From NCBI GenBank assembly GCA_020853615.1, contig JADYYO010000342.1:3172-67171 (forward strand): 64,000 bases of DNA, given 5' to 3'. The stretch is from Thermomicrobiales bacterium (GTDB lineage Bacteria; Chloroflexota; Chloroflexia; Thermomicrobiales; UBA6265). The position numbers were made by a program, and so were the translations under genes. Numbering within the stretch: position 1 is the stretch's first letter; each line of letters opens with the position of its first letter. Shown here piece by piece: positions 7,246 to 59,207 of this stretch. The notes under the pieces were generated by a model. The model saw only the letters and a list, made by a program, of their open reading frames with translations. It was not told the DNA's origin and searched no databases.

Positions 7246-7261
7246 GGCCGAGCTCCTTCGA

Positions 7262-7825
7262 TCAGCGCTTGCGCTTGGTGATGGTGCGGTACAGCACGAC
7301 GCCGCCGGCGGCGGCGCCCGCCCAGATCCACCACGGCAGCTTCTTCGGTGCCGGGGCGGCGGGTTCGGCGCTGGCCTTCGTCGGGATCTCGTCGATCTCG
7401 TCGTAGAACCCGCCGCCGCCACCGCCGCCACCGCCGCCCGAGGCGGGACGCCCGGGCTGGGGCGCGACCGTGCCCGGCGTGACGCTGGTCGACGTCGACA
7501 GCGCCGGGCGGCCGGGCTGCGCCTTGACCGGCGTCAGGGTCTGGAGCGGCGGGAGCGTCGTCAGCCGAGGCGGCTTGGGCGCCGGGAGCGCGGGCATCCC
7601 GCGCGGCCGGGGCACCGGGAACGCGACGGTCACGAGCGTCCGCGGCCCCGTGCCCGAGCCGCCGCTGGCGCCCGAGCCCGAGTCCTGGCCCGGTCCGCCC
7701 TGGTTGATCGCGCCGAGCGCGCGCCGGCCGCGCAGCATCGGCGCCGGCGCCGAACGCGGGGCGGGTGCGTGCGCGGCGATCGCGCCAGCGCCCTGGGTGC
7801 GATCGAGGAAGTAGTCCTGGCTCAT
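7262..7825 (-). CDS. Pro/Gly-rich tail-anchored membrane protein
   Basis: Start MSQDYFLDRTQ (cat 7823-7825, ATGA overlap); G10 tract; ends LPWWIWAGAAAGGVVLYRTITKRKR. Confidence 0.65.
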   Translation of the reverse strand: MSQDYFLDRTQGAGAIAAHAPAPRSAPAPMLRGRRALGAINQGGPGQDSGSGASGGSGTGPRTLVTVAFPVPRPRGMPALPAPKPPRLTTLPPLQTLTPVKAQPGRPALSTSTSVTPGTVAPQPGRPASGGGGGGGGGGFYDEIDEIPTKASAEPAAPAPKKLPWWIWAGAAAGGVVLYRTITKRKR

Positions 7826-20208: not shown

Positions 20209-20892
20209 CTACGGGTTGACGACGAGATCGGGGTTGTTCTCGAGGAAGGTCTCGCGGCGCTTCTGGAGCTGGCGCAGCTCCTTCGGATCGCCGGGATCCC
20301 ACTGGTTGCACTCGTAGACCAGGGTCTCGGTGAGATCGGTCTCGCAGCCGGGCTGGCGCATGCACGTGCGGACGATCTGGCGCGGCGCCTTGACGGGCTT
20401 GCCATCGGGCAGCGGGACGACCTGGTTGCCCTCGCAGACCATGCACGGCACCCATCGCGGCGCCGGCTCGTCGATGACGTGGTGGTGCGCGCCCGCGTGA
20501 TTCGCCACCAGCCGGCACGGGATCTCGCGGTGGATGCCCTGGCTCGGGCGGTAGCCGCACGCCGCGTCGTCCGACGGGGCAAGATCGGGCGTCGCCATGA
20601 CCTGGCCGCGCCCCGCGCAGTTCGGGCACGGCGCCATGTCGCGCAACCCGTGGACCGGGTCGAAGGTCTGCGCCGGGTTGCCGATGTCCAGGTGGACCTT
20701 GAGCTCGCCGTAGTAGCGACACGGGCCCCGCAGGCAGATGAACGTCTGCGGCGTCGCCTCGGGCAGCGGCGCCGGCGCGCCCACGGTCCCGGCCGCGATG
20801 CCGCCGTCGGGCGCGATCGGCGGGAGCGGGGCGCTGTCGATGTTGGCGTAGACGTCGATCGGGCTCTTGTGGCGCGGGGGGAGAGTCGGCAC
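20209..20892 (-). CDS. Cys-rich protein, first gene of late operon
   Basis: GTG at 20892 (VPTLPPRHKSPIDVY...). Several CxxC-type pairs (CPNCAGRG, CMVCEG). The upstream part of tracked ORF 20209-21231 is low-GC3 noncoding. Confidence 0.6.
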   Translation of the reverse strand: MPTLPPRHKSPIDVYANIDSAPLPPIAPDGGIAAGTVGAPAPLPEATPQTFICLRGPCRYYGELKVHLDIGNPAQTFDPVHGLRDMAPCPNCAGRGQVMATPDLAPSDDAACGYRPSQGIHREIPCRLVANHAGAHHHVIDEPAPRWVPCMVCEGNQVVPLPDGKPVKAPRQIVRTCMRQPGCETDLTETLVYECNQWDPGDPKELRQLQKRRETFLENNPDLVVNP

Positions 20893-21464
20893 GGGTGGTG
20901 ACACTACGCGATCCACCGGGCGGGTTCTAGCGCCGTTCGTGCGGCGTTTTCGCGAGCCCCGATCGCGCACGGGCGCAGCTTTCGATCGCCACCAGGCCGA
21001 GACCGTTGTGGCGTTTGGGTGCCGCTCGAGCGCGCGGGCAACGCCAAACCGCCGCGCAACTGCGCTCGGGGCCCGGTTTGGCGTTAGCGGATCCTGTTGC
21101 CAAAACGCGGATCGCGGTGCCGTTCCGGAGCGATCGATGGCGCGCAAGCGCGATCTGCGGCCTGGTACCGCGGTGGCCCCGGTCCCGCGCTGGACCGGGC
21201 GCCGGATGGCCCCGGTGCGATGCGATGCCACACCAGCCTACAGTGTAGGTGTTGCGGCCCGCAACATGGTTAAAATCCCCCGCCAACCTGTCAGGTTCCC
21301 GGACACTTTCCGGTGGATTTTCACCACGTGCCCGGTCAAGTACCCGGAAACACTGCGCCTAGAACCCGGCATGCCGGATGCTTTGACCGGGAATGCGGCC
21401 GGAATCCTCCGGCGCCCCCGGCTGGACAACCGGGGCCCGTCAACCCTCACCGACAGGATACCCG
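20893..21464. promoter_or_regulatory. 572-bp divergent control region between late (-) and early (+) operons
   Basis: Lowest-GC stretch. TTTGGCG/CGCCAAA inverted repeats (21010-21108). Palindromes CCTACAgTGTAGG (21237-21249) and GTTGCGgccCGCAAC (21251-21265). TAAAAT box at 21271-21276. CCGGA-N4/5-TCCGG palindromes at 21299-21313 and 21399-21412. Confidence 0.6.
20901..20906 (-). promoter_or_regulatory. -10-like TAGTGT, 8 nt upstream of GTG 20892 (leaderless late-operon promoter candidate)
   Basis: Minus strand reads gatcgcgTAGTGTcaccacccGTG. Confidence 0.35.
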
Positions 21465-22160
21465 ATGCTGGCGACCGAAAGCCGCGCCCATGGCGCGGTG
21501 GTACAGTGCCCGTCCTGCGCCTGGACGGGGCCGCGCACCGCGCGGGGCCCCATCCCAGCGCACAAGGTGATTCGGCTGGCGGGCCCGGGCGATCGACTCG
21601 CCTCCCGCCACCGCGGGGCCGCTCCCGTGGGACCCCGTCCCGCGTGCGCGGGCCCCATGTCCGACCGGCAGATCGCCCGGGCCATCGCCCGGACGTTCGC
21701 TGCGGTGCGCATGCCGGACCTTGCGCGACTCTCGACCACGCTTCCCCCCGATCTCTGGGCTACCAGCGCGCTGTACCGCGCGCTGGCCCCGATGCCGTGG
21801 GCCCGCTACGTGGTGCGCGTGCTGGCGCCGCTGGACCACGACGGTTCGCGCCGGACCGTGGTGCAAGCGTTCCACGTCCGGGCCCATGCGGAAGCGTGGG
21901 CCCACGCGTGCGCGCTGGCGCTGGGCCCCGCGGGGACCAGCGCGCGCACCGCGGGCTACGTGACCGTGGGTGCGCTGGACACCCGCCCCAAGCGGTGGGC
22001 CACCATGGCGAGCTACTACGGGCGGGATCTGGGGCTCGAGTCCCCGGTCACGTACACCGCGATCGATCCGGGTGGCGTGGTGTTCCGGTACACGGATCCC
22101 GCGCACTACCCCGGCCATGGCGACGCACCGTCGCGTGACGCGTGGGATCGGATCTGGTGA
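21465..22160 (+). CDS. hypothetical early protein
   Basis: ATG 21465 (MLATESRAHGAVVQCPSCAW); alternative start 21657 (MSDRQIARAIAR); the C-terminal 160 aa clearly look like protein. Confidence 0.55.
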   Translation: MLATESRAHGAVVQCPSCAWTGPRTARGPIPAHKVIRLAGPGDRLASRHRGAAPVGPRPACAGPMSDRQIARAIARTFAAVRMPDLARLSTTLPPDLWATSALYRALAPMPWARYVVRVLAPLDHDGSRRTVVQAFHVRAHAEAWAHACALALGPAGTSARTAGYVTVGALDTRPKRWATMASYYGRDLGLESPVTYTAIDPGGVVFRYTDPAHYPGHGDAPSRDAWDRIW

Positions 22161-22444: not shown

Positions 22445-22677
22445 TGCCGTGCGCGGTCATGGTGCGCCTCCCGGGCGGCCGGCGCATCCTGGACAGCTAC
22501 CGGCCCGGACGTCCGTACTACCCCGGCCCGGGCGCCGCATGGCGCCGGGCGATCGTGATCGCGCGCGCCACGCGTGGCGTGGTGGTCACGGTCGAGACCT
22601 GCAATGGCGCGCGCCTCGCATCGATCACCCGCGCCACCGACGGCGCGATCACGATCGACACCCGGAGAACCCCATGA
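22441..22677 (+). CDS. hypothetical small protein
   Basis: ATGA overlap; MMPCAVMVRLPGGRRILDSYRPG... Confidence 0.55.
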   Translation: MMPCAVMVRLPGGRRILDSYRPGRPYYPGPGAAWRRAIVIARATRGVVVTVETCNGARLASITRATDGAITIDTRRTP

Positions 22678-23012
22678 AGATCCAAGCGTACACGAGCGGT
22701 GGCCGGTCGGAGATCGCCGCGGGCGGGTTTGATGGCCCGTGGCGGTTCGATCGGTACCACCCGGCGCCCCCGGCCGACGGGTGCCGGACGTGCGCGCGCA
22801 TCGCCCCGGCCCAGTGCAGCGACCACCGGCCCGTCATGGAGCGGTGCATGATCCTCGGGCCGGGCGATCTCAGTCTCCGGTGCGTCGGGTACAGCGGCAA
22901 CGGGCCGGCCCGGCCCGAGGATCCCGCGTGGCGCGCGTACGATCCGCGCTGCGGAAGCTGCTACCTCGGGACGCCACACACGATCGCGCGCCACGATCAC
23001 GAGACCGCGTGA
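22674..23012 (+). CDS. Cys-rich small protein
   Basis: ATGA overlap; MKIQAYTSGGRSEIAAGG...CRTCARIAP...CGSCYLG. Confidence 0.6.
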   Translation: MKIQAYTSGGRSEIAAGGFDGPWRFDRYHPAPPADGCRTCARIAPAQCSDHRPVMERCMILGPGDLSLRCVGYSGNGPARPEDPAWRAYDPRCGSCYLGTPHTIARHDHETA

Positions 23013-29052: not shown

Positions 29053-29853
29053 ATGGAGATCCAACACTTCCCATACGCCCACCTGCGCGTCGCCGCGTGC
29101 AACCCGCGCGTCCAGATCGATCCCGCCGAGCTGCGCCAGCTGGCGCTGCACGTCGCGCGCGACGGCCTCTTGACGCCGCTCCGGGTGACGCCCGGCGGCG
29201 ACATCCTGGCCGGCCAGCGGCGCTGGCGCGCGATCGGGCTCGTGATCGCGTGGCGCGAGCATTTGGTCGACGGCGAGGATGGCGCGCAGCCCGACGAGCA
29301 TGCGCTGTTCGACATGCGGGCCCAAGCGCTGATCGGCGCGGTGCCGTGCGTCGTCGACGACGCCGGCGCCGCCCAGGCGCCGGTCCGCGCGCTCGCCGAG
29401 AACCTGCACCACGAGCCGATGAGCAGCTACGACACGGCCATGGCCTACGCCGCGCTGGCGGGCCCCGTCAACGAGCCGCGCCGGACGATGACCGAGCTTG
29501 CCCGCGAGACCGGGCGCAGCAAGAGCACCGTCTCGCGCATGCTGACCGCGTGGCGTCAGGCCGGCCCCGAGCTCCACGCCGCGTGGCAGGCGGGCCTGGC
29601 GTTCGAGCGCGTGCTCGCGCTGGCGGCGCTGCCGCTCGAGGCGCAGCGCGACGCGCTCGCTGGCGGTCACAAGAGTCACGGCCGGCCTGGGATCGAGGCC
29701 ACCAAGGCGGTGCTGCGCGAACTGCGCGAGACGCATGGCGACAGCCACCCGTACTCTGACGGCGCGATCGCCGCGCTGCGGTTCGTCGCCGGCGAGTTGC
29801 CGATGGACCAGTTCATCTCGACCATCAAGGCGGAAGTCGACGTCTCGCCATGA
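29053..29853 (+). CDS. ParB/Srx-fold N-terminal domain + HTH protein (ParB-like)
   Basis: LLTPLRVTPGGDILAGQRRWRA (GxRRxxA box), ENLHHEPMSSYDTA, HTH MTELARETGRSKSTVSRML; AGGAG RBS. Confidence 0.75.
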   Translation: MEIQHFPYAHLRVAACNPRVQIDPAELRQLALHVARDGLLTPLRVTPGGDILAGQRRWRAIGLVIAWREHLVDGEDGAQPDEHALFDMRAQALIGAVPCVVDDAGAAQAPVRALAENLHHEPMSSYDTAMAYAALAGPVNEPRRTMTELARETGRSKSTVSRMLTAWRQAGPELHAAWQAGLAFERVLALAALPLEAQRDALAGGHKSHGRPGIEATKAVLRELRETHGDSHPYSDGAIAALRFVAGELPMDQFISTIKAEVDVSP

Positions 29854-43860: not shown

Positions 43861-43979
43861 CGTGGCGTCCTTCGGTTGAGAGTCCAGTTTCGGTCACGCG
43901 GGCGTTCCTCGAGCTCGGCCAGCGCGACGGTTCCACAGGTCATCCACACCCTGTGGACAACCGCGATCATCACGTTCAT
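43857..43979 (-). CDS. 40-aa ORF coupled by ATGA overlaps on both sides (excisionase/RDF-sized)
   Basis: MNVMIAVVHRVWMTCGTVALAELEERPRDRNWTLNRRTPR; its ATG overlaps the int stop and its stop overlaps the next ATG. Confidence 0.4.
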   Translation of the reverse strand: MNVMIAVVHRVWMTCGTVALAELEERPRDRNWTLNRRTPR

Positions 43980-44833
43980 CGACGTTCCTCGACCGGCGGC
44001 TCGAACATGGATTCGGCGACCCGGTCGATCGCCTCGCCGCGGACGTGGTCGACGTACTGCATCGCCGTCGACAGGTTGGCCCACTGCATGTGCTCCATCA
44101 GCTTCGGGAGCGCCTCGGCGTCGCCGGCGTGGGCGCGCAGGAACGTCACCGCGTAGGTTCGACGCAGCCGGTGCGGGTGCAGCCCGTCGATCCCACACCG
44201 TCCTCCCAGCCGCTTGAGTTGGCGCTGGACCTTCCGGGCCGCGCTCTGCAGCCGCACCTCCTCGTCCTTGGACGTCGGAACGAGCAGGTGCGCGACGGTA
44301 TCCCAGCCGCGCTCGTGCGCGAGCAGCTCGAGCCACGGCTTGAACGTCTTGAGCACGGTGAACTCGAGGTAGCGCCGCCCCTTCGCAACGAACGAGAGCC
44401 GGCCCGTAACGAGCGCGCTGACGATCTGCGCGCGCTGCATCCTCAGCACGTCGGCGTCGCGGAACCCGCGGTATGCCATCAACCCGATCACCGCGCGCAT
44501 CGGCGGTGTAAGATCCTTCGCCGCCCGCACCTCGAGCATGAGCCGCTGCAGCGGCTGGGCGTCGACCGGCACTTTCTCTTTCGCGCGCCGGGGCGGCGGC
44601 AAGCGGAACTCGCCCAACGCCTCGCGCAGCGCAGGGTCCACGGCGTAGTCCGCCCAGCGGCGGGCGGCCGCCCGCACCAACCGGCGCGTCTTCGGCGCGC
44701 CCCGCTTGAGCCGCTCGATCCAGCCGCCGTCCTCGGTCGCGCGCTTCGCGTGGTGGACGTAGATCGCGACCGTGCCGGGCTGGAGCCCGAACCGCCCCAG
44801 GTAGGTGCGGAAGCCGTCGAGCGTGGTGGCCAT
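43976..44833 (-). CDS. int: tyrosine recombinase / phage integrase
   Basis: C-terminal catalytic motifs GLHPHRLRRTYAVTFL (HxLRHT-type) and LMEHMQWANLSTAMQYV (GH..x..T..Y); start MATTLDGFRTYL (a GTG at 44845 is also possible). Confidence 0.85.
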   Translation of the reverse strand: MATTLDGFRTYLGRFGLQPGTVAIYVHHAKRATEDGGWIERLKRGAPKTRRLVRAAARRWADYAVDPALREALGEFRLPPPRRAKEKVPVDAQPLQRLMLEVRAAKDLTPPMRAVIGLMAYRGFRDADVLRMQRAQIVSALVTGRLSFVAKGRRYLEFTVLKTFKPWLELLAHERGWDTVAHLLVPTSKDEEVRLQSAARKVQRQLKRLGGRCGIDGLHPHRLRRTYAVTFLRAHAGDAEALPKLMEHMQWANLSTAMQYVDHVRGEAIDRVAESMFEPPVEERR

Positions 44834-44845
44834 GTCCGAAAACAC

Positions 44846-45125
44846 CGTGCGCCGGTCTCCATGCGCTGGTCAAGGCGAGATCCCGGTCTTGACGCGGGGC
44901 GCGGACGTTGGCAGGATGACCGGGTAAGGACATCGGCTGGTCGCCATTGTCCCTGTCGCAACGCTGGCCCGGGATGTCCCCCCGGGCCAGCGCCCTTTTC
45001 GGGCCACCGTTGGCAGATCACTGAACACGCGCACCGTGCCGATCTCCCCGGGAGTGGCGACGGTTGCAGAGTTTCGGTCCGAAAAGGTTGCAACCCCGAC
45101 CCGGCTTCCGCAGGATGCGAGGCCG
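44846..45125. promoter_or_regulatory. int-adjacent noncoding region, attP/regulatory candidate
   Basis: IR GTCAAG-N13-CTTGAC (44869-44893). Direct repeats GTTGGCAG (44907, 45009) and GTTGCA (45063, 45087). Palindrome TTTCGGtCCGAAA (45072-45084). Confidence 0.45.
44964..45000 (+). terminator. 10-bp GC stem-loop followed by CGCCCTTTTC
   Basis: CTGGCCCGGG-atgtccc-CCCGGGCCAG then a T4 run. Its orientation does not match any upstream plus-strand gene, so the function is uncertain. Confidence 0.35.
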
Positions 45126-45568: not shown

Positions 45569-45993
45569 ACATGAACGCGATGATGAGCGCGATGACGGTG
45601 CTTGGGATGGTTGACGGCCCCGAGTTGCTGGTGACGTACGACGGCCACCGCCCGCTCGCGGTGGTCGCGCCGCTTTGCCCGATCACGACCACGACCCGCG
45701 CGCTCTACGACCGCACGCTCTACGACCGCACGCTCGTGGTCGACGCGATCGCGCGCCCCCGGCCGCAGGTGCTGCCCACCGCCGTGCTGATGGCGGCCGC
45801 GTTGGCGTCGACGCCGACCGACATCCTGCCTCGGCGGCAGGGCGGGCTCGATCCGCACCTTGATCGCCGCCACGCGATCGAGGCGGCACGCAAGGCCGAG
45901 GCGCCGGCTCAGCCGAGCGCGCCTGGCGCCGGCGTGGGCGTCAGCGAGGCGCGCCGGCGGCGCCGGGCCGCGAAGCGCAAGAGGGGGTTCTAG
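45565..45993 (+). CDS. hypothetical protein (142 aa) with basic C-terminus
   Basis: GTGA overlap; VNMNAMMSAMTVLGMVDGPELLVTYDG...; ends EARRRRRAAKRKRGF. Confidence 0.55.
   Translation: MNMNAMMSAMTVLGMVDGPELLVTYDGHRPLAVVAPLCPITTTTRALYDRTLYDRTLVVDAIARPRPQVLPTAVLMAAALASTPTDILPRRQGGLDPHLDRRHAIEAARKAEAPAQPSAPGAGVGVSEARRRRRAAKRKRGF
45702..45735 (+). repeat. 15-bp tandem repeat GCTCTACGACCGCAC x2.3 (encodes LYDRT-LYDRT)
   Basis: Read directly at 45702-45735. Confidence 0.85.
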
Positions 45994-46301
45994 TGGAGTC
46001 GCTTGCCCAGCAGCTGCGGGACACCGTCCGCAAGGGCCTCCCCATCCACCAGCGGATCGAGCTCGAGCGCCACCTGGCCGGGCTGTCGGGCTCGCACTGC
46101 GCGCGCGCGATCGGCTGGTCGCACACGCTCTGGCAAGAGCTCGAGGCCGGCCAGCGGGAGCCCCGCCACGAGGAGCTGCCGCGGATCGCCAAGATCCTAG
46201 GGATCAGCGTCCGCCGGCTGACCGGCGGCCACGCCAAGAAGACGCCCGGCTGGAAGCCGATCGGCCGGCCCCGCACCCGCAAGGCGATCACCGCGGCATG
46301 A
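45993..46301 (+). CDS. XRE/Cro-CI-type helix-turn-helix regulator
   Basis: GTG overlapping the TAG stop; LSGSHCARAIGWSHTLWQELEAGQREPRHEELPRIAKILGISVRRL. Confidence 0.7.
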   Translation: MESLAQQLRDTVRKGLPIHQRIELERHLAGLSGSHCARAIGWSHTLWQELEAGQREPRHEELPRIAKILGISVRRLTGGHAKKTPGWKPIGRPRTRKAITAA

Positions 46302-47225: not shown

Positions 47226-48293
47226 ATGAACGAGACCGACCAGCGCCATCCCGTCAACAGCATCGTCGCGACCGACCACGAGATCCACATCCGCCTCGGC
47301 GGGCTGGCGGTGGCGATCCGCCTTGGCGCAGACGCCACCGACACCGCGGTGATCAACGAGGATCTGTACCTGCCGCTCTACAGCGTGGTTTCGCGCGAGA
47401 TCGCGAAGCGCATCAAGCTTGATGGCAAGTGGCCACAGCGCTTCCGTGAGTTCTTCGAGGCCGACCCCGAGTTCATCAGGAGCTTCGGCGGCGCCATCGA
47501 CGCCTCGATCGCCACCGCTGCCGCGAATGCGCCAGCGACCGACGATGAGCTTGCGGCGCTGTTGCGCGGCGAGAGCCTTCCGCGCGGACGGCGCGTGCTG
47601 GTGATGCAGGCGGCGCTGATCCGGCTCGAGTGGCGGCTCGGGGAGCAGTTGCCGCCGCAGATGCGCGAGATCGGGGCGCGCCTCGAGTCGCTGGAGCGCA
47701 ACATCCAGCAGCTCCGGTCGAACGTCGACGCCAACCTGACGACGCGGATCAGCAAGCTCGAGAGCGACATCACGGCGCTCAAGGTGCAGAAGGGCCACCA
47801 AGGCGACGTCAACGCCGAGCACAAAAAGGCCATCTCCGAGCTCTCGGTCGCGGTCGCCGGCCTCGATCGGGCGGCGCCGCCCGAGCTGGCGTCGCTCGTC
47901 GAGCTGGTGACCGGCCAGCAGGACCAGATCGACAAGCTGCAGGCGATGCTCGAGCCGCGCATCCCCGCCGGTGTGGTCGACGGGCGCCCGGTCGCCGGCC
48001 CGGAGATCGGGATCGCGCTCGACGGCGAGATCGCGCGGGCGATCGACCGCCAGGATCTCGCGACCCGCACGCACGTCGACGAGGCGGTCCGCAGGCTGGC
48101 CGCGACGATCCGCCAGTACGTCCGCGACCAGGTCCAGCAGGCGCTGCGCCGCCGGCCCTCGGCGCTCCGCCGCGTCTGGGACGCGCTCGCCGATCGCGGC
48201 GCGCCGTCCGCGCCCGCACCCGCGCAGGAGCCGGCGGCGGTTCCGCCGGCGATCGCCGAGCTGGCCGAGCAGGCGCTCCGGCGGGGGCGGTGA
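47226..48293 (+). CDS. coiled-coil protein (355 aa)
   Basis: Full ORF MNETDQRHPVNSIVATDHEIHIRLGG...; central heptad-like region (LESLERNIQQLRSNVDANLTTRISKLESDITALK). Confidence 0.75.
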   Translation: MNETDQRHPVNSIVATDHEIHIRLGGLAVAIRLGADATDTAVINEDLYLPLYSVVSREIAKRIKLDGKWPQRFREFFEADPEFIRSFGGAIDASIATAAANAPATDDELAALLRGESLPRGRRVLVMQAALIRLEWRLGEQLPPQMREIGARLESLERNIQQLRSNVDANLTTRISKLESDITALKVQKGHQGDVNAEHKKAISELSVAVAGLDRAAPPELASLVELVTGQQDQIDKLQAMLEPRIPAGVVDGRPVAGPEIGIALDGEIARAIDRQDLATRTHVDEAVRRLAATIRQYVRDQVQQALRRRPSALRRVWDALADRGAPSAPAPAQEPAAVPPAIAELAEQALRRGR

Positions 48294-48298
48294 CCCCG

Positions 48299-49888
48299 AT
48301 GGACGCGTTGCCCGACGGGCCGATCGACGTCGAGATCTTCTCGTGCGCCGGCGGCATGGCCGAGGGGTTCCGGCGCGCCGGGATCACGTTCCACATGGCC
48401 GTCGACATGGCCAAGGACCACTGCGACAGCTACGAGCGCAACCTCGGCCATCGGCCGGTGCAGATGGACGCCCGCGACCTGCTGCGGATGGCGCGCCTGG
48501 GCTGGCGCGTGCCCGTGCGGCTGCTCGTCGCCGATCCGCCCTGCACGCCGTGGTCGCGCGCCGGCAAGCGCCAGGGCGTCAGCGACGACCGCGACATGCT
48601 CCGGCAGACCGCCGAGATCATCGGGCTGCTCCGGCCCCGGGCCTACCTGATCGGCAACGTGCCGGGGCTCGAGGACGCCAACAACCTGGCGGTCGTGCAG
48701 GACGTGATCGGCGGGCTCGCGCGGTGGGGATACTGCGTCAGCGACTTCGCCGCGCTCGACGCGGCCGACTACGGCGTGCCCCAGCACCGCGTGCGGCCGT
48801 TCTGGTTCGGGCACCGCCACGGCCCGTGCCTGCGGTGGCCGTTGCCGACGCACGGCGACCCGTGCGACATCAAGGACACGCTGCCCGGCCTGCCGATGCC
48901 CGCGCCGTGGGTGACGTGCGGGCAGGCGCTCGGTCACCTGTCGCCGCGCGAGCTGGGGCGCATGGTCTGGCTGCGGAAGCGGCCGGCGGCGCCGGCGTCG
49001 GCGCTCCGCGCGAGCGTACCCGAGCGCCCGGCCCGGACCGTCTGCGCCTCGAGCTTGGGCGACGGGAACGTGATCAACTACAGCCGCAAGCACGCGCCGT
49101 CCGCCGGCAACCAGCCCGCCAAGACCGTGCGGACCGGCGGCCGAGGCGGCCACCAGGCCGTCGTCCTCGAGAACACCAACGACTCGGACCCGGGCCAGCC
49201 GGCCAAGACGATCGTCGCGGCCCGGCGAGGCACGCAGGCGATGACGCTGCACGACACGCCCAACCACCCGCCCGCGATGGCGTTTGGCGGCCGCGATGGC
49301 GGCGTCGACCGCACGCACCAGCAAAACAAGCCCGCGCGCGCGATCACGACGCAGACCGGCGACCATGGTGTGCTGGTGCTCGCGATCGAGGGCGCCCGGC
49401 GGCGGGTGCCGCAGTCGGAGCGCGTCGTCGCGACCGATGGCCCGGCGACGACGCTCCAGGCGCGGGAGGATCGGCAGGGCACCGGCATGGTGATGGAGTG
49501 GCCGTGGGCGCGGCCGTCGACGGCGATCATGGCCGATCCCCGGCTGGGCCAGCCGGGCCACAAGGACAAGGCCTGGAAGGGCAAGGGCGGCCAGCGCGCG
49601 CGCGCGAAGCAGCGCGGCGTGCTCTTAAGCGAGCGCGCCGGCGCGATCCTGCAGGGGTTCCCCGAGACCTGGGTGTTCTCGGGCGTCACGAAGAAGACGC
49701 GGTGGAGCCAGATCGGCCAAGCGATGCCGCCGCCCCTCGCGCACGCGGTCGCGCAGAGCATCGTCGCGCAGCTTGCCGCCACCGTCGACGACGGGCCGCC
49801 CGAGAACTACGTGGGCTGGGTGCCCCCGGTCGCGCGCACCGAGTCCGAGGCGCGCGAGCAGCTCGTGCTGGTCGGGGGATCGCCATGA
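48299..49888 (+). CDS. dcm: DNA (cytosine-5) methyltransferase-like, long repeat-containing target-recognition region
   Basis: Motif I IFSCAGGMAEGF, IV DPPCTPWSRAG, VI IGNVPGL (ENV Glu replaced by Gly), VIII QHRVRPFWFG, IX/X LQGFPETWVF...GQAMPPPLA. Confidence 0.8.
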   Translation: MDALPDGPIDVEIFSCAGGMAEGFRRAGITFHMAVDMAKDHCDSYERNLGHRPVQMDARDLLRMARLGWRVPVRLLVADPPCTPWSRAGKRQGVSDDRDMLRQTAEIIGLLRPRAYLIGNVPGLEDANNLAVVQDVIGGLARWGYCVSDFAALDAADYGVPQHRVRPFWFGHRHGPCLRWPLPTHGDPCDIKDTLPGLPMPAPWVTCGQALGHLSPRELGRMVWLRKRPAAPASALRASVPERPARTVCASSLGDGNVINYSRKHAPSAGNQPAKTVRTGGRGGHQAVVLENTNDSDPGQPAKTIVAARRGTQAMTLHDTPNHPPAMAFGGRDGGVDRTHQQNKPARAITTQTGDHGVLVLAIEGARRRVPQSERVVATDGPATTLQAREDRQGTGMVMEWPWARPSTAIMADPRLGQPGHKDKAWKGKGGQRARAKQRGVLLSERAGAILQGFPETWVFSGVTKKTRWSQIGQAMPPPLAHAVAQSIVAQLAATVDDGPPENYVGWVPPVARTESEAREQLVLVGGSP

Positions 49889-50790
49889 CCGACCTGCACA
49901 CGTGGGATCCGGCGAAGCTCGCGGCGGTGCCGCTGCTCAAGTGGGTCGGCGGCAAGAGCGCGCTCCTGCCCGAGCTCCGCAAGCGCCTCCCGACGCGGTT
50001 CGGGACGTACTACGAGCCGTTCGCCGGCGGCGCCGCCCTGTTCTTCGCGCTGGCGGCCGCGGTCGTGCGCCGGGATGCTTATCCGTGGAGCCACATCTCG
50101 GATCTGAACCCGCACCTGATCGGCGCGTACCGCCTCGTGCGCGACCATCCGTCGGAGGTGTTGGCCGCACTGGTCGACTACGAACGGCGCCACGCCACCG
50201 TGCGTCCATCGAAGCGATACCCGGCGCCCGCGCTCTACTACCAGGTCCGCGAGATCTGGAATGCCGGGGCGTTCACGACCGATCACCAGCACGCGGCCGC
50301 GTTCCTGTACCTCAACCGGACGTGCTTCAACGGCATCTGGCGGGTCAACAAGGAGGGCAAGTTCAACGTGCCGGCCGGGCGCTACAAGCGGCCGCGGATC
50401 GCGGACGAACGGCGGCTCCGGGTGTGCGCCGCCGCGCTTGCGGGCGCGCGCGTGGCGGTCGAGCGGTGGCAGGACGCGATCGAGGGCATCACCAAGAACG
50501 ATCTGGTCTACTTCGATCCGCCGTACGTGCCGCTGTCCGAGACCGCGAACTTCACGGCGTACACGCAGCAGGGCTTCGGGAAAGACGACCACGCGGAGCT
50601 GGCGGAGGCTGCGCACGCGCTCGTCCGCAAGGGCGTCCACGTGATCATCAGCAACAGCGACACGCCGGCGGTCCGCAAGCTCTACAAGGGCATGCGGATC
50701 AGCCGGGTGAAGATGGCGCGCTCGCTCTCGTGCAAGGGTGACCGGCGCCAGCCCGTGGGGGAGCTGCTGATCGTCGGAGGCCGACGGTGA
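49885..50790 (+). CDS. dam: Dam-family DNA N6-adenine methyltransferase
   Basis: ATGA overlap; LLKWVGGKSALLPEL, YYEPFAGGAALFF, CFNGIWRVN, VYFDPPYVPLS. Confidence 0.85.
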   Translation: MTDLHTWDPAKLAAVPLLKWVGGKSALLPELRKRLPTRFGTYYEPFAGGAALFFALAAAVVRRDAYPWSHISDLNPHLIGAYRLVRDHPSEVLAALVDYERRHATVRPSKRYPAPALYYQVREIWNAGAFTTDHQHAAAFLYLNRTCFNGIWRVNKEGKFNVPAGRYKRPRIADERRLRVCAAALAGARVAVERWQDAIEGITKNDLVYFDPPYVPLSETANFTAYTQQGFGKDDHAELAEAAHALVRKGVHVIISNSDTPAVRKLYKGMRISRVKMARSLSCKGDRRQPVGELLIVGGRR

Positions 50791-51419
50791 TCCTGCGAGC
50801 GGCCGCACGCGACGAGGTGCTCTCACTGTTCGAGCGGCACCATGCCTACGCGGGCATTTCACGCTCGACGACGTACCTGTTTGCTGTGGAGGAACCGTGC
50901 GGCATCGTCGCAGCGTTCGCGTGGCAGCCCCCCCCGCCCGGCGCCGCCAAGAGCGTCTGCGCCGAGGCACCTCATGGCGTGCTGGCCCTGTCCCGCATGG
51001 TCGCGGTGCCAAGGACGGATCGGGCGCTGCGGCACATCTCGAAGCCGCTTCGCCAGCAGATGCGCCGCATGATCGATCGGACGCGATGGCCTGTGCTCGT
51101 GACCTACTCCGACGAGGGACTGGGGCACACGGGCCACGTCTACAAGTGCTCTGGCTGGCAGCCGACGATCCGGAGCCAGCGACCGCAGTTCGTGGATGCT
51201 GATGGCGTTCGCCGGTCAGCTTACGCGAACGGCCGTAGCGGCCACGCTCATCTCCGGTCGATCGGCACGGCCACGATTCAGCGCTGGGAGCACTGGTCGT
51301 GCGAACGCGGTGACGCCGCCCGCTGGATGGAAGCGCATGGGTGGCAGCGCGTGGCCGTGCCCGGCAAGCAATGGCGCTCGGGCAGTCCCGCGTTCACGTG
51401 GGTGCGGAGCCTCGCATGA
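50787..51419 (+). CDS. Mom-like / GNAT-fold DNA-modification protein candidate
   Basis: GTGA overlap; ERHHAYAG, VLALSRMVAVP, VLVTYSDEGLGHTGHVYKCSGWQPT resembles the Mom-family YaD..GH.G.iY.a.gW core. Confidence 0.45.
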   Translation: MILRAAARDEVLSLFERHHAYAGISRSTTYLFAVEEPCGIVAAFAWQPPPPGAAKSVCAEAPHGVLALSRMVAVPRTDRALRHISKPLRQQMRRMIDRTRWPVLVTYSDEGLGHTGHVYKCSGWQPTIRSQRPQFVDADGVRRSAYANGRSGHAHLRSIGTATIQRWEHWSCERGDAARWMEAHGWQRVAVPGKQWRSGSPAFTWVRSLA

Positions 51420-57125: not shown

Positions 57126-57251
57126 GTTCGCCCGCAGAGGGCTGTGACCGGGGCGGCGCCCCAACGCGACGGTGCTCGGCCGAGACGCGCCACAGGCGTG
57201 CGCGTCGTCCGTACGGCTCGGCCCCGATCGGGCGTGCATAGCGCAAGTCTC

Positions 57252-57273
57252 GGGGCCCGCTGCAGCGGGCCCC
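57252..57273 (+). terminator. 22-nt perfect GC palindrome (11-bp stem) followed by weak T tract
   Basis: GGGGCCCGCTG/CAGCGGGCCCC then ggggcggaTCTTTC; lies between two operons. Confidence 0.45.
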
Positions 57274-57311
57274 GGGGCGGATCTTTCACCACCAACCGAG
57301 GATGCTCTCCC

Positions 57312-58581: not shown

Positions 58582-58717
58582 CGCCGACCGCTGCGCCTGC
58601 GGCGCGGACGCGTGGGCGACGTCGGCGACGCTGATCGCCTGTCTCGCGTGCGGTCGGCTCTGGGGCCGCGTCAACGGCGCGTGGGTGCTCGACCCCGACA
58701 CGGTGCGTCGTGGCTGA
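58505..58717 (+). CDS. small Cys-rich protein (70 aa), 77-nt overlap with the rusA-like gene
   Basis: High GC3 downstream of 58581 (DADRCACGADAWATSATLIACLACGRLWG); the only in-frame start is ATG 58505. Confidence 0.45.
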   Translation: MTTTTNGSTPSSGSGSPSPTCPPAGDADRCACGADAWATSATLIACLACGRLWGRVNGAWVLDPDTVRRG

Positions 58718-59207
58718 TGATCTGGGCCAGGCCCGGCGCGAGAGCACGCTCACGCCCGAGCAACTGCTCGCGCAGGCGCTCAAGGACAAGGCGTTCCCGA
58801 CGCACCGCTTCCGGCTCGAGAGCCCGAAGGCGGGCGCGTCGCGGCTGCTGACGCAGAAGGCGGCCGCGCGCGCCCAGGCGCGCTACGGCGGCGACGTCGT
58901 GGAGCTCGTCACGATGAAGGACTGGCTGACCGCGACCGCGCAGTCCCTGCCGACGTGCGAGCGCGCGTCGTGCCAGGCGCCGGCGGGTCTCCCGTGCCGC
59001 GACGTTCACGGCATCCGCAAGCCGCACCCGAACCGGCTCGGCAAGCGCGAGTCGACGCGGATCGCGCTCGAGGAGTACCTGCGGTGCGAGACGTGCGGGG
59101 CGTGGCCCGGCAAGTCGTGCGTGACCGAGAGCGGCATGGTCCGGCGCGCGCACAAGGATCGGCCGATGCTGGCGCCGCCGGCGCCGGTCGCGGAGCCCGC
59201 GCCGTGA
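58710..59207 (+). CDS. hypothetical Cys-containing protein (165 aa)
   Basis: GTG start; ADDLGQARRESTLTPEQLLAQALKDKAFP...CERASCQAPAGLPCRD...CETCGAWPGKSC. Confidence 0.6.
   Translation: MADDLGQARRESTLTPEQLLAQALKDKAFPTHRFRLESPKAGASRLLTQKAAARAQARYGGDVVELVTMKDWLTATAQSLPTCERASCQAPAGLPCRDVHGIRKPHPNRLGKRESTRIALEEYLRCETCGAWPGKSCVTESGMVRRAHKDRPMLAPPAPVAEPAP

Follow-up and report, generated by a model that had tools for sequence, protein, structure and literature searches.

The divergent early-control and immunity regions described in temperate phages, such as PL/OL-PR/OR of lambda, those of P2 and 186, and Pe/Pc with O1-O3 of Mu, consist of one non-coding region between two diverging gene blocks, with palindromes beside the gene starts. 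In high-GC bacteria (Actinobacteria and Deinococcus-Thermus) leaderless promoters are known in which a TANNNT hexamer lies about 7 nt before the start codon and no Shine-Dalgarno sequence is present. Here we analyse a region with both kinds of resemblance, in a 64,000-nucleotide stretch of Thermomicrobiales contig JADYYO010000342.1 (the window; 72% G+C). The window is part of an uncharacterised phage-like element of ~80 kb, from a very poorly known phage family, and the region is the gap at 20,893-21,464, the sole strand switch between a leftward gene block (78-20,892) and a rightward block that begins at 21,465.

We consider this gap to be an ordinary divergent promoter, operator and leader region of its phage family, with a probability of roughly 0.6. 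On this reading the left end (20,893-20,960) would hold the promoter of a conserved 20-kb leftward module and give a leaderless mRNA, the middle ~275 bp would be a spacer under near-neutral drift, and the right end (21,237-21,464) would provide the rightward operon with its control region and leader. At the right end two neighbouring palindromes, P1 and P2, would serve as adjacent single-copy binding sites for dimeric regulators; an A/T-armed inverted repeat with inner CCGG hairpins would come next, and two hairpins, H3 and H4, would then lie in the 5' untranslated region (UTR) before the ribosome-binding site. A first-pass annotation of the sequence had expected early/late regulation at this place, which is plausible, and had put phased TTTGGCG/CGCCAAA repeats foremost. 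All the strings that it listed were found where it had put them, and the gene layout identifies the gap as the one divergent control region that the element has. Its location was right and its emphasis misplaced, in that the conserved parts that look functional are the two ends of the gap and not the phased repeats.

Conservation at the two ends of the gap

Since open reading frame (ORF) lists are uninformative at this G+C content, genes were called from GC content at third codon positions (GC3). In the resulting layout the minus strand carries every gene between 78 and 20,892 and the plus strand those from 21,465 to ~39,900; the leftward signal ends at ~20,890, the rightward signal begins at 21,465, and GC3 stays at background between them. 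The gap is non-coding, as had been supposed at first pass, for it has no GC3 signal and indels in the relatives interrupt every ORF inside it. The coding candidates that were rejected on this basis are a 340-aa extension of the leftward ORF, an ORF with an ATG at 21,393 and a 70-aa minus-strand ORF, all of them without GC3 signal and with frame-breaking indels in the relatives L006, L015 and L011.

Relatives carrying the same divergent gap (L001 onward) were reached through homologues of the two gap-flanking proteins, on contigs of 69-85 kb that include two IMG/VR viral contigs and contigs of metagenome-assembled genomes (MAGs) binned to Thermomicrobiales and Kiloniellales. The closest is L011 (94% identity to the window), followed by L001, L002 and L003 (~83%), L006 (~80%) and the partial L005 and L015 (~77-82%); farther away are the partial L007 and L014 (~53-56%), L012 and L013 (~45-50%) and L004 (44%, on an 85-kb contig). 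A profile search with the right-hand zone of the gap added L008, and L016, L017/L018 and L019 are distant relatives, the last two from IMG/VR. The DNA sequencing runs in which relatives are present are SRR13355620, ERR2683225, ERR15440487, SRR13131472, SRR25158527 and SRR26324621. Scans of IMG/VR for close relatives with single flanking proteins came back empty. Exact-pattern scans for the twin palindromes found only L006 again (as L010) in the metagenome collection and no match in the viral and genome collections. In all six lineages with both ends in view (the window, L011, L001, L006, L004 and L012) the gap is 540-575 bp long. The leftward module is syntenic in L004, with proteins 33-64% identical, and the rightward genes there are mostly unrelated.

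The zones of Table 1 were defined from alignments with nine related contigs, by per-zone identities and a profile in 12-nt bins. Identities are given to L001, L006 and L015, each where it covers the zone, and the neutral yardstick was the identity at four-fold degenerate sites of the flanking genes (0.79 in L001, 0.79 in L006 and 0.66 in L015). Because zones L, R1 and R2 exceed this yardstick and zone M does not, both ends of the gap are under purifying selection and the middle is not.

Table 1. Zones, sequence features and flanking gene starts of the gap, in window positions (strand: +, rightward; -, leftward; a dot, neither)
Feature	Position	Strand	Description
Zone L	20,893-20,960	-	identity 0.88-0.90; 0.88-0.94 over the relatives with ~80% protein identity; 66% in L004
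Zone M	20,961-21,224/36	.	identity 0.55-0.64
Zone R1	21,232-21,349		identity 0.92-0.94
Linker	21,350-21,366	.	variable stretch inside zone R; identity 0.35-0.71, even among close relatives
Zone R2	21,367-21,464	+	identity 0.92-0.98; near-invariant, leader-like
First leftward gene, GTG start	20890..20892	-	227 aa, Cys-rich, orphan
-10-like TAGTGT	20906..20901	-	8 nt, then GTG 20892; no Shine-Dalgarno sequence
Conserved block GAACCCGCCCGGTGGATCGCG		-	holds TAGAAC (20929..20924), a poor -35, 17 nt upstream of the hexamer
AAAACGCCGC tract	zone L	-	
Repeat element GGCGTTTGG	21010-18		zone M
Repeat element CGCCAAACC	21042-50		zone M
Repeat element GGTTTGGCG	21075-83		zone M
Repeat element TTGCCAAAACGC	21097-108		zone M
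12-bp perfect inverted repeat	21040-51 / 21074-85	.	AACGCCAAACCG / CGGTTTGGCGTT, 22-nt spacer; lineage-specific
P1	21237-49	.	CCTACAgTGTAGG palindrome, candidate operator
P2	21250-66	.	TGTTGCG-gcc-CGCAACA, 17-bp palindrome (GTTGCGgccCGCAAC at 21251-65), candidate operator
Long inverted repeat, A/T-rich arms	21264-82 / 21311-29	.	ACATGGTTAAAATCCCCCG / CGGTGGATTTTCACCACGT, 19-nt arms
TAAAAT	21271-76		inside one arm of the long inverted repeat
Palindrome AACCTGtCAGGTT	21285-97		enclosed by the long inverted repeat
Hairpin CCGGAcacttTCCGG	21299-313		CCGGA-N5-TCCGG, enclosed by the long inverted repeat
CCGGCATGCCGG	21366-77	+	zone R2
TGC-TTTGAC	21379-87	+	TGC-TATCAT, TATAGT or TATGTC in distant relatives
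H3	21398-413	+	GCCGGA-atcc-TCCGGC
H4	21416-35	+	CCCCGG-ctggacaa-CCGGGG
Shine-Dalgarno AGGA	21455-58	+	
First rightward gene	21465..22160	+	231 aa, orphan, N-terminal CPxC motif; GC3 signal, homologues P0010-P0014

Eight lineages (the window, L011, L001, L006, L005, L004, L007 and L012) have no Shine-Dalgarno sequence in zone L but a TANNNT hexamer (TAGTGT, TATCGT or TATGGT) that ends 7-9 nt ahead of the leftward start codon. The leftward gene agrees with the sequence pattern of a leaderless start (TANNNT some 6-9 nt ahead, no Shine-Dalgarno). The start itself was placed from the N-terminal alignment of the homologues, which begins at VPTLP and gives GTG 20892; the NCBI start lies 12 nt upstream, at GTG 20904. 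The block GAACCCGCCCGGTG upstream of the -10-like hexamer is identical even in L004. We infer that zone L is probably the promoter of the leftward module and gives a leaderless mRNA, and that this promoter may depend on an activator, given that a conserved block stands upstream where a good -35 is lacking. A promoter for an extracytoplasmic function (ECF) sigma factor (GGAAC...CGTA) might also be read into zone L, a reading considered by eye only.

Two further observations concern this zone. Distant lineages of lower G+C carry GGAGG-type ribosome-binding sites before the leftward gene (L016 2840-2860, L017 2950-2965, L019 1085-1110 and L008 585-600), and the mode of translation initiation of this gene appears to have switched with the host lineage. 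Each strand of the gap has one outward-pointing copy of the string CTAGAACCCG, at 20921-20930 (minus) and 21359-21368 (plus); with one mismatch allowed the window holds 8 copies against 1.6 expected, a number reached in 0 of 100 shuffles. Only the left one of the two, which overlaps the -35-like position, is conserved; the other falls within the variable linker.

Palindromes and hairpins of the right-hand end

P1 and P2 are invariant in five close lineages, and 27 of their 30 bases are kept in L004, whose flanking proteins are only 44% and 26% identical to those of the window. L012 keeps the CCTACA half and the ACATGT core of P1 and has exchanged P2 for CCGTGCC-acc-GGCACGG, a palindrome with the same arm length and the same 3-nt spacer. 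Across the lineages 91% of the P2 cells are paired, and four of its pairs have changed on both sides. Given the fixed spacer and the substitution of a palindrome of the same geometry, P2 looks like an operator, and we infer binding by a dimeric protein.

Short palindromes as a class (arms of at least 6 bp, spacers of at most 5 nt) number seven in the region against 2.0 expected (p~0.03). The CCGGA-N4/5-TCCGG pattern is found twice in the 64 kb, against 0.5 expected, and both copies are in the gap, at 21299-313 (N5) and 21399-412 (N4), 100 nt apart as the first-pass annotation had recorded. When five of the palindromes were followed through the relatives, 87% of cells were paired, compared with at most 51% when the partners were slid, and nine pairs had changed on both sides, compared with 3.5 +/- 1.5 in shuffles (0 of 500 reached nine); these figures come from about five independent lineages and from a structure derived from the window, which by itself favours outscoring the slid-partner control. 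Support is best for the dyads of P2 and of H3 (21,398-413). What had been noticed at first pass as twin palindromes and a pair of CCGGA hairpins lies in a block whose conservation exceeds that of synonymous sites, with dyads that survive two-sided changes in distant relatives. A profile search of the window and of the related loci found no further copy of zone R.

The TAAAAT hexamer of zone R1 is the sole TAnnnT with at least five A/T bases in the gap, and it had been proposed as a -10 box. In a comparison of eight relatives seven have GAAAAT here; it is the reading of the remaining close lineages and of L004, with GAAATT in L012 and AAAAAT in L014. The hexamer is a window-specific G-to-T variant of GAAAAT inside an inverted repeat, it has no -35 partner, and the proposal is not supported. 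What is conserved here is the architecture of the long inverted repeat itself. In the close group both strands of its 69-nt segment give fold z-scores of -2.9 to -4.9, and in distant lineages the fold is weak; A/T-armed repeats of other sequence are present in L019 and, with the order of the arms reversed, in L008, and in L014 the A-run forms the T-tail of a minus-strand terminator-like hairpin with a 7-bp stem. Such a repeat might serve as a pair of operators, as a terminator or insulator, or as an attenuator.

In zone R2, three pairs of H3 show compensatory changes, there is one G:U, and the loop measures 3 to 6 nt, depending on the lineage; given this variable loop, a nucleic-acid hairpin fits H3 better than a dyad bound by a protein at fixed spacing. 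H4 has a GGGAC loop conserved in six lineages. Just upstream of H3, L014, L004 and L012 have a good promoter (TTGAAC/TTGACC-18-TGC-TATCAT/TATGTC/TATAGT), whose -35-like TTGAAC or TTGACC occupies the position of the linker in L014 and L004. A promoter at this place in the distant relatives would put both H3 and H4 in the 5' UTR.

The middle of the gap and the surrounding element

The repeats that had been given first place are all in zone M, a fast-evolving stretch that drifts near-neutrally and is weakly conserved. The inverted repeat formed by the elements at 21042 and 21075 is indeed perfect, and it measures 12 bp rather than the 9 bp first reported; only 1% of dinucleotide shuffles of the region contain one as long. 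It is kept only in L011, L001 having the right arm alone. A looser TGGCG...CGCCA dyad, with different spacing, occurs near the same place in L001, L006 and L004, in bins whose conservation does not exceed the neutral expectation. The window has exact TTTGGCG at chance frequency (5 copies, 4.4 expected), with two of the five in the region, in inverted orientation, and the element at 21010 is a permuted string and not the same motif. The supposed phased family therefore reduces to one strong inverted repeat with two weak partial matches. The first-pass suggestion of mutually exclusive RNA structures fares no better, in that zone M folds no more stably than shuffles in most lineages (z-scores mostly -0.8 to -2, with two strong values that fall on different strands in different lineages), and G:U-type and A:C-type cells favour neither strand. 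Identity shared by all three lineages varies from 0 to 0.75 per 12-nt bin, the length of the zone is conserved, and its GC content is 68-76%. The phased repeats are lineage-specific features of a drifting spacer and probably not functional sites.

An imperfect inverted repeat of 27 nt, matching at 23 of them and found in ~1.5% of shuffles, joins zone M (20968-20994) to the opening nine codons of the rightward gene (21466-21492). Of the relatives L011 alone keeps it, and it may be a small inverted duplication or chance.

The leftward flanking protein is 100% identical to the hypothetical protein IT338_17255 of a Thermomicrobiales MAG, on a contig of 80,077 bp. The rightward one has no match in Pfam, PHROG or PDB, and AlphaFold2 models of the two are of low confidence (pLDDT 50 and 46). 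Nearly all proteins of the window are orphans in Pfam, PHROGs and PDB, and no capsid, portal or terminase gene is recognisable. A BLAST comparison of the gap and the first 25 kb with 50,697 phage records gave zero matches, as did searches of PDB sequences with four of the proteins or their profiles, and a literature search on Thermomicrobiales phages found nothing relevant. The few phage-like or mobile-element-like matches are to a holin LLH, SLT, an M23 peptidase and 3D/PG-binding domains, and further ones to a Mom-like protein, a tyrosine integrase, a ParB_N protein with a helix-turn-helix (HTH), a DnaA_N domain and C5 and N6 DNA methyltransferases. Candidate DNA-binding proteins of the element are a 112-aa Cys-rich protein (22,674-23,012), which L004, with its identical P2, also has, the ParB_N-HTH protein (29,053-29,853), an HTH_31 protein (45,993-46,301) and a zinc-finger protein (58,710-59,207).

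Several features elsewhere in the window deserve mention. The window has 796 evenly spread GATC sites, 12.4 per kb where its base composition predicts 2.5, and the element encodes a D12-class N6-adenine methyltransferase (49885-50790), a C5 methyltransferase (48290-49888) and the Mom-like protein (50886-51419). A Dam-regulated origin or promoter marked by clustered GATC was considered for the gap and rejected, the seven sites there equalling the genome-wide density of 12.4 per kb. A second divergent gap (44846-45125) adjoins the gene for the tyrosine integrase (43976-44845, minus strand) and contains a 12-bp perfect inverted repeat, CGCTGGCCCGGG / CCCGGGCCAGCG (44962-44973 / 44981-44992), with a 7-nt loop; this repeat or its gap may represent the true lysogeny switch, a terminator or an attP core. 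The longest perfect inverted repeat of the window, 16 bp (GATCCTCGGGCCGGGC / GCCCGGCCCGAGGATC, 22850-22865 / 22908-22923, 42 nt apart), is inside a Cys-rich gene of 112 aa (22674-23012) that is among the few rightward genes common to L004. A 24-bp perfect palindrome at 57251-57274 (two 12-bp arms, CGGGGCCCGCTG / CAGCGGGCCCCG) occupies a 186-bp gap (57126-57311) between rightward genes. An apparent second large gap on the minus strand (7246-7821, 576 bp) was discarded, being a low-complexity Gly/Pro-rich ORF missed by the GC3 filter; that ORF (7246-7825) holds a 12-bp inverted repeat (7355-66 / 7406-17) and the string GTAGAACCCG.

Alternative explanations and described systems

Several results count against an ordinary promoter, operator and leader region. 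The scan of 20,700-21,700 on both strands gave 0 canonical sigma-70 sites, and at the position of the good -10 of the distant relatives the window group has TTTGAC. There is no sign of a regulator gene next to the gap: neither the flanking genes nor the next six rightward genes gave a Pfam or PHROG match, and the nearest HTH proteins are encoded at 29,053 and 45,993. P1 and P2 are each present in single copy in the 64 kb and are unrelated to one another, P2 is also single in each relative that has it, and its dyad is degenerate or broken in L014 and L008. The small number of lineages behind the dyad test belongs here too, as does the count of G:U-type cells, 5 against 8 of the A:C type, which shows no strand preference of the kind expected of transcribed hairpins.

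That last count bears equally on the proposal that zone R (21,264-21,464) works mainly as RNA, with a terminator or attenuator (the hairpin at 21299-313 and the U-run at 21317-21) and H3 and H4 controlling read-through or translation of the rightward operon, in the manner of lambdoid pR'-tR' with Q, of nut and put sites, or of attenuators. An RNA role is possible in view of the terminator-like site flagged on the plus strand (a 5-bp stem followed by TGGATTTTCA), the stable fold of the 69-nt segment, the compensatory changes, G:U pair and variable loop of H3, the constant GGGAC of H4 and the conservation of R2 above synonymous sites. On the other hand, Rfam 15 gave no match at E <= 1 in 20,700-21,700, and the window contains no tRNA or transfer-messenger RNA (tmRNA) gene; alifold energies are similar and fold z-scores equal on the two strands, the latter falling off in distant lineages; and the terminator-like hairpin, besides having only 5 bp and no promoter identified upstream of it, has no equivalent in L004, L012 or L008. 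We regard RNA as the main mode of action of this zone as unlikely, though worth keeping in mind. A bolder version would make zone R (~21,264-21,464) an undescribed cis-regulatory RNA of a new phage family in Chloroflexota-type hosts, composed of the A/U-flanked terminator-like stem and two leader hairpins, one with the invariant GGGAC loop. Here a phage factor that reads this RNA would turn on the rightward operon, through antitermination or through control of translation, and the palindromes would define immunity-like specificity classes (a GTTGCG type in the window and L004, a CGTGCC type in L012); this we find rather more doubtful.

Two further proposals concern other functions for the palindromes and repeats. 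P2 could conceivably be a partition or silencing site for the ParB-like protein of the element (29,053-29,853), acting as a centromere-binding protein or as a long-range repressor like KorB. That protein, with its ParB_N domain and HTH, is encoded ~8 kb to the right and is also present in L001 and L011, and P2 is a conserved 17-bp palindrome found once per genome, whose outer TGTT...AACA we take to resemble chromosomal parS. The resemblance, however, is limited to those 4+4 bases, L004 has an identical P2 and no ParB homologue in the 9.4 kb to the right of its gap, and a palindrome beside a gene start fits an operator equally well, so that we judge a parS-like role improbable. The gap might, finally, serve for replication or packaging; the TTTGGCG-type repeats, standing where the leftward module begins, would then be the iterons of an origin or the terminase sites of a pac/cos region. 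The gap does head a conserved module whose first genes encode small orphan proteins, its repeats are ~32 bp apart, and the 12-bp inverted repeat is unlikely by chance; yet the repeats lack conservation, exact TTTGGCG is no commoner than chance predicts, zone M has neither an AT-rich unwinding element nor GATC enrichment, the only replication-type gene found (the DnaA_N domain) is 25 kb away, and the ends of the relatives' contigs do not coincide with the gap. Iteron origins are recognised by at least three conserved phased direct repeats, an AT-rich element and an adjacent initiator, a combination that the gap does not have. To an origin or packaging site we therefore give hardly any credence, and we retain the divergent promoter, operator and leader region as the preferred account.

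The conserved non-coding blocks are among the few handles on regulation in a family with almost no Pfam, PHROGs or PDB matches. As targets for start-site mapping and for a regulator search they offer what is probably a leaderless promoter of late type, the twin single-copy palindromes and a pair of putative leader hairpins. There is also a negative lesson, in that the most eye-catching repeats of this 72% G+C gap are its least conserved part and its "AT-rich -10 box" is a one-base variant within an inverted repeat.

Set beside the leaderless promoters of high-GC bacteria, the putative leftward promoter has its hexamer 7-9 nt upstream of a GTG or ATG and no Shine-Dalgarno sequence in eight lineages, although the spacing is 1-2 nt longer, a conserved GC-rich block takes the place of the -35 and the transcription start is a predicted one. 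With bidirectional intrinsic terminators and promoter-proximal attenuators the right-hand end shares a GC-rich inner hairpin between a 5' A-run and a 3' T-run (21,271-21,321), but its inner stem has only 5 bp, the A and T runs pair in a longer stem, and the order of the arms is reversed in L008.

The divergent control regions of temperate phages differ from the gap in having repeated operator arrays, where the gap has single copies, and a recognisable repressor or Cro-like gene alongside, where it has none. The window, moreover, has no canonical -35/-10 pair, ~275 bp of neutral spacer separate the conserved ends, and the integrase is 23 kb away, beside the second divergent gap. The likeness to these regions nevertheless extends beyond the layout from which we started: a conserved module on one side faces a mosaic module on the other, and in a related phage one palindrome has been exchanged for another of the same geometry, as happens with heteroimmune operators.

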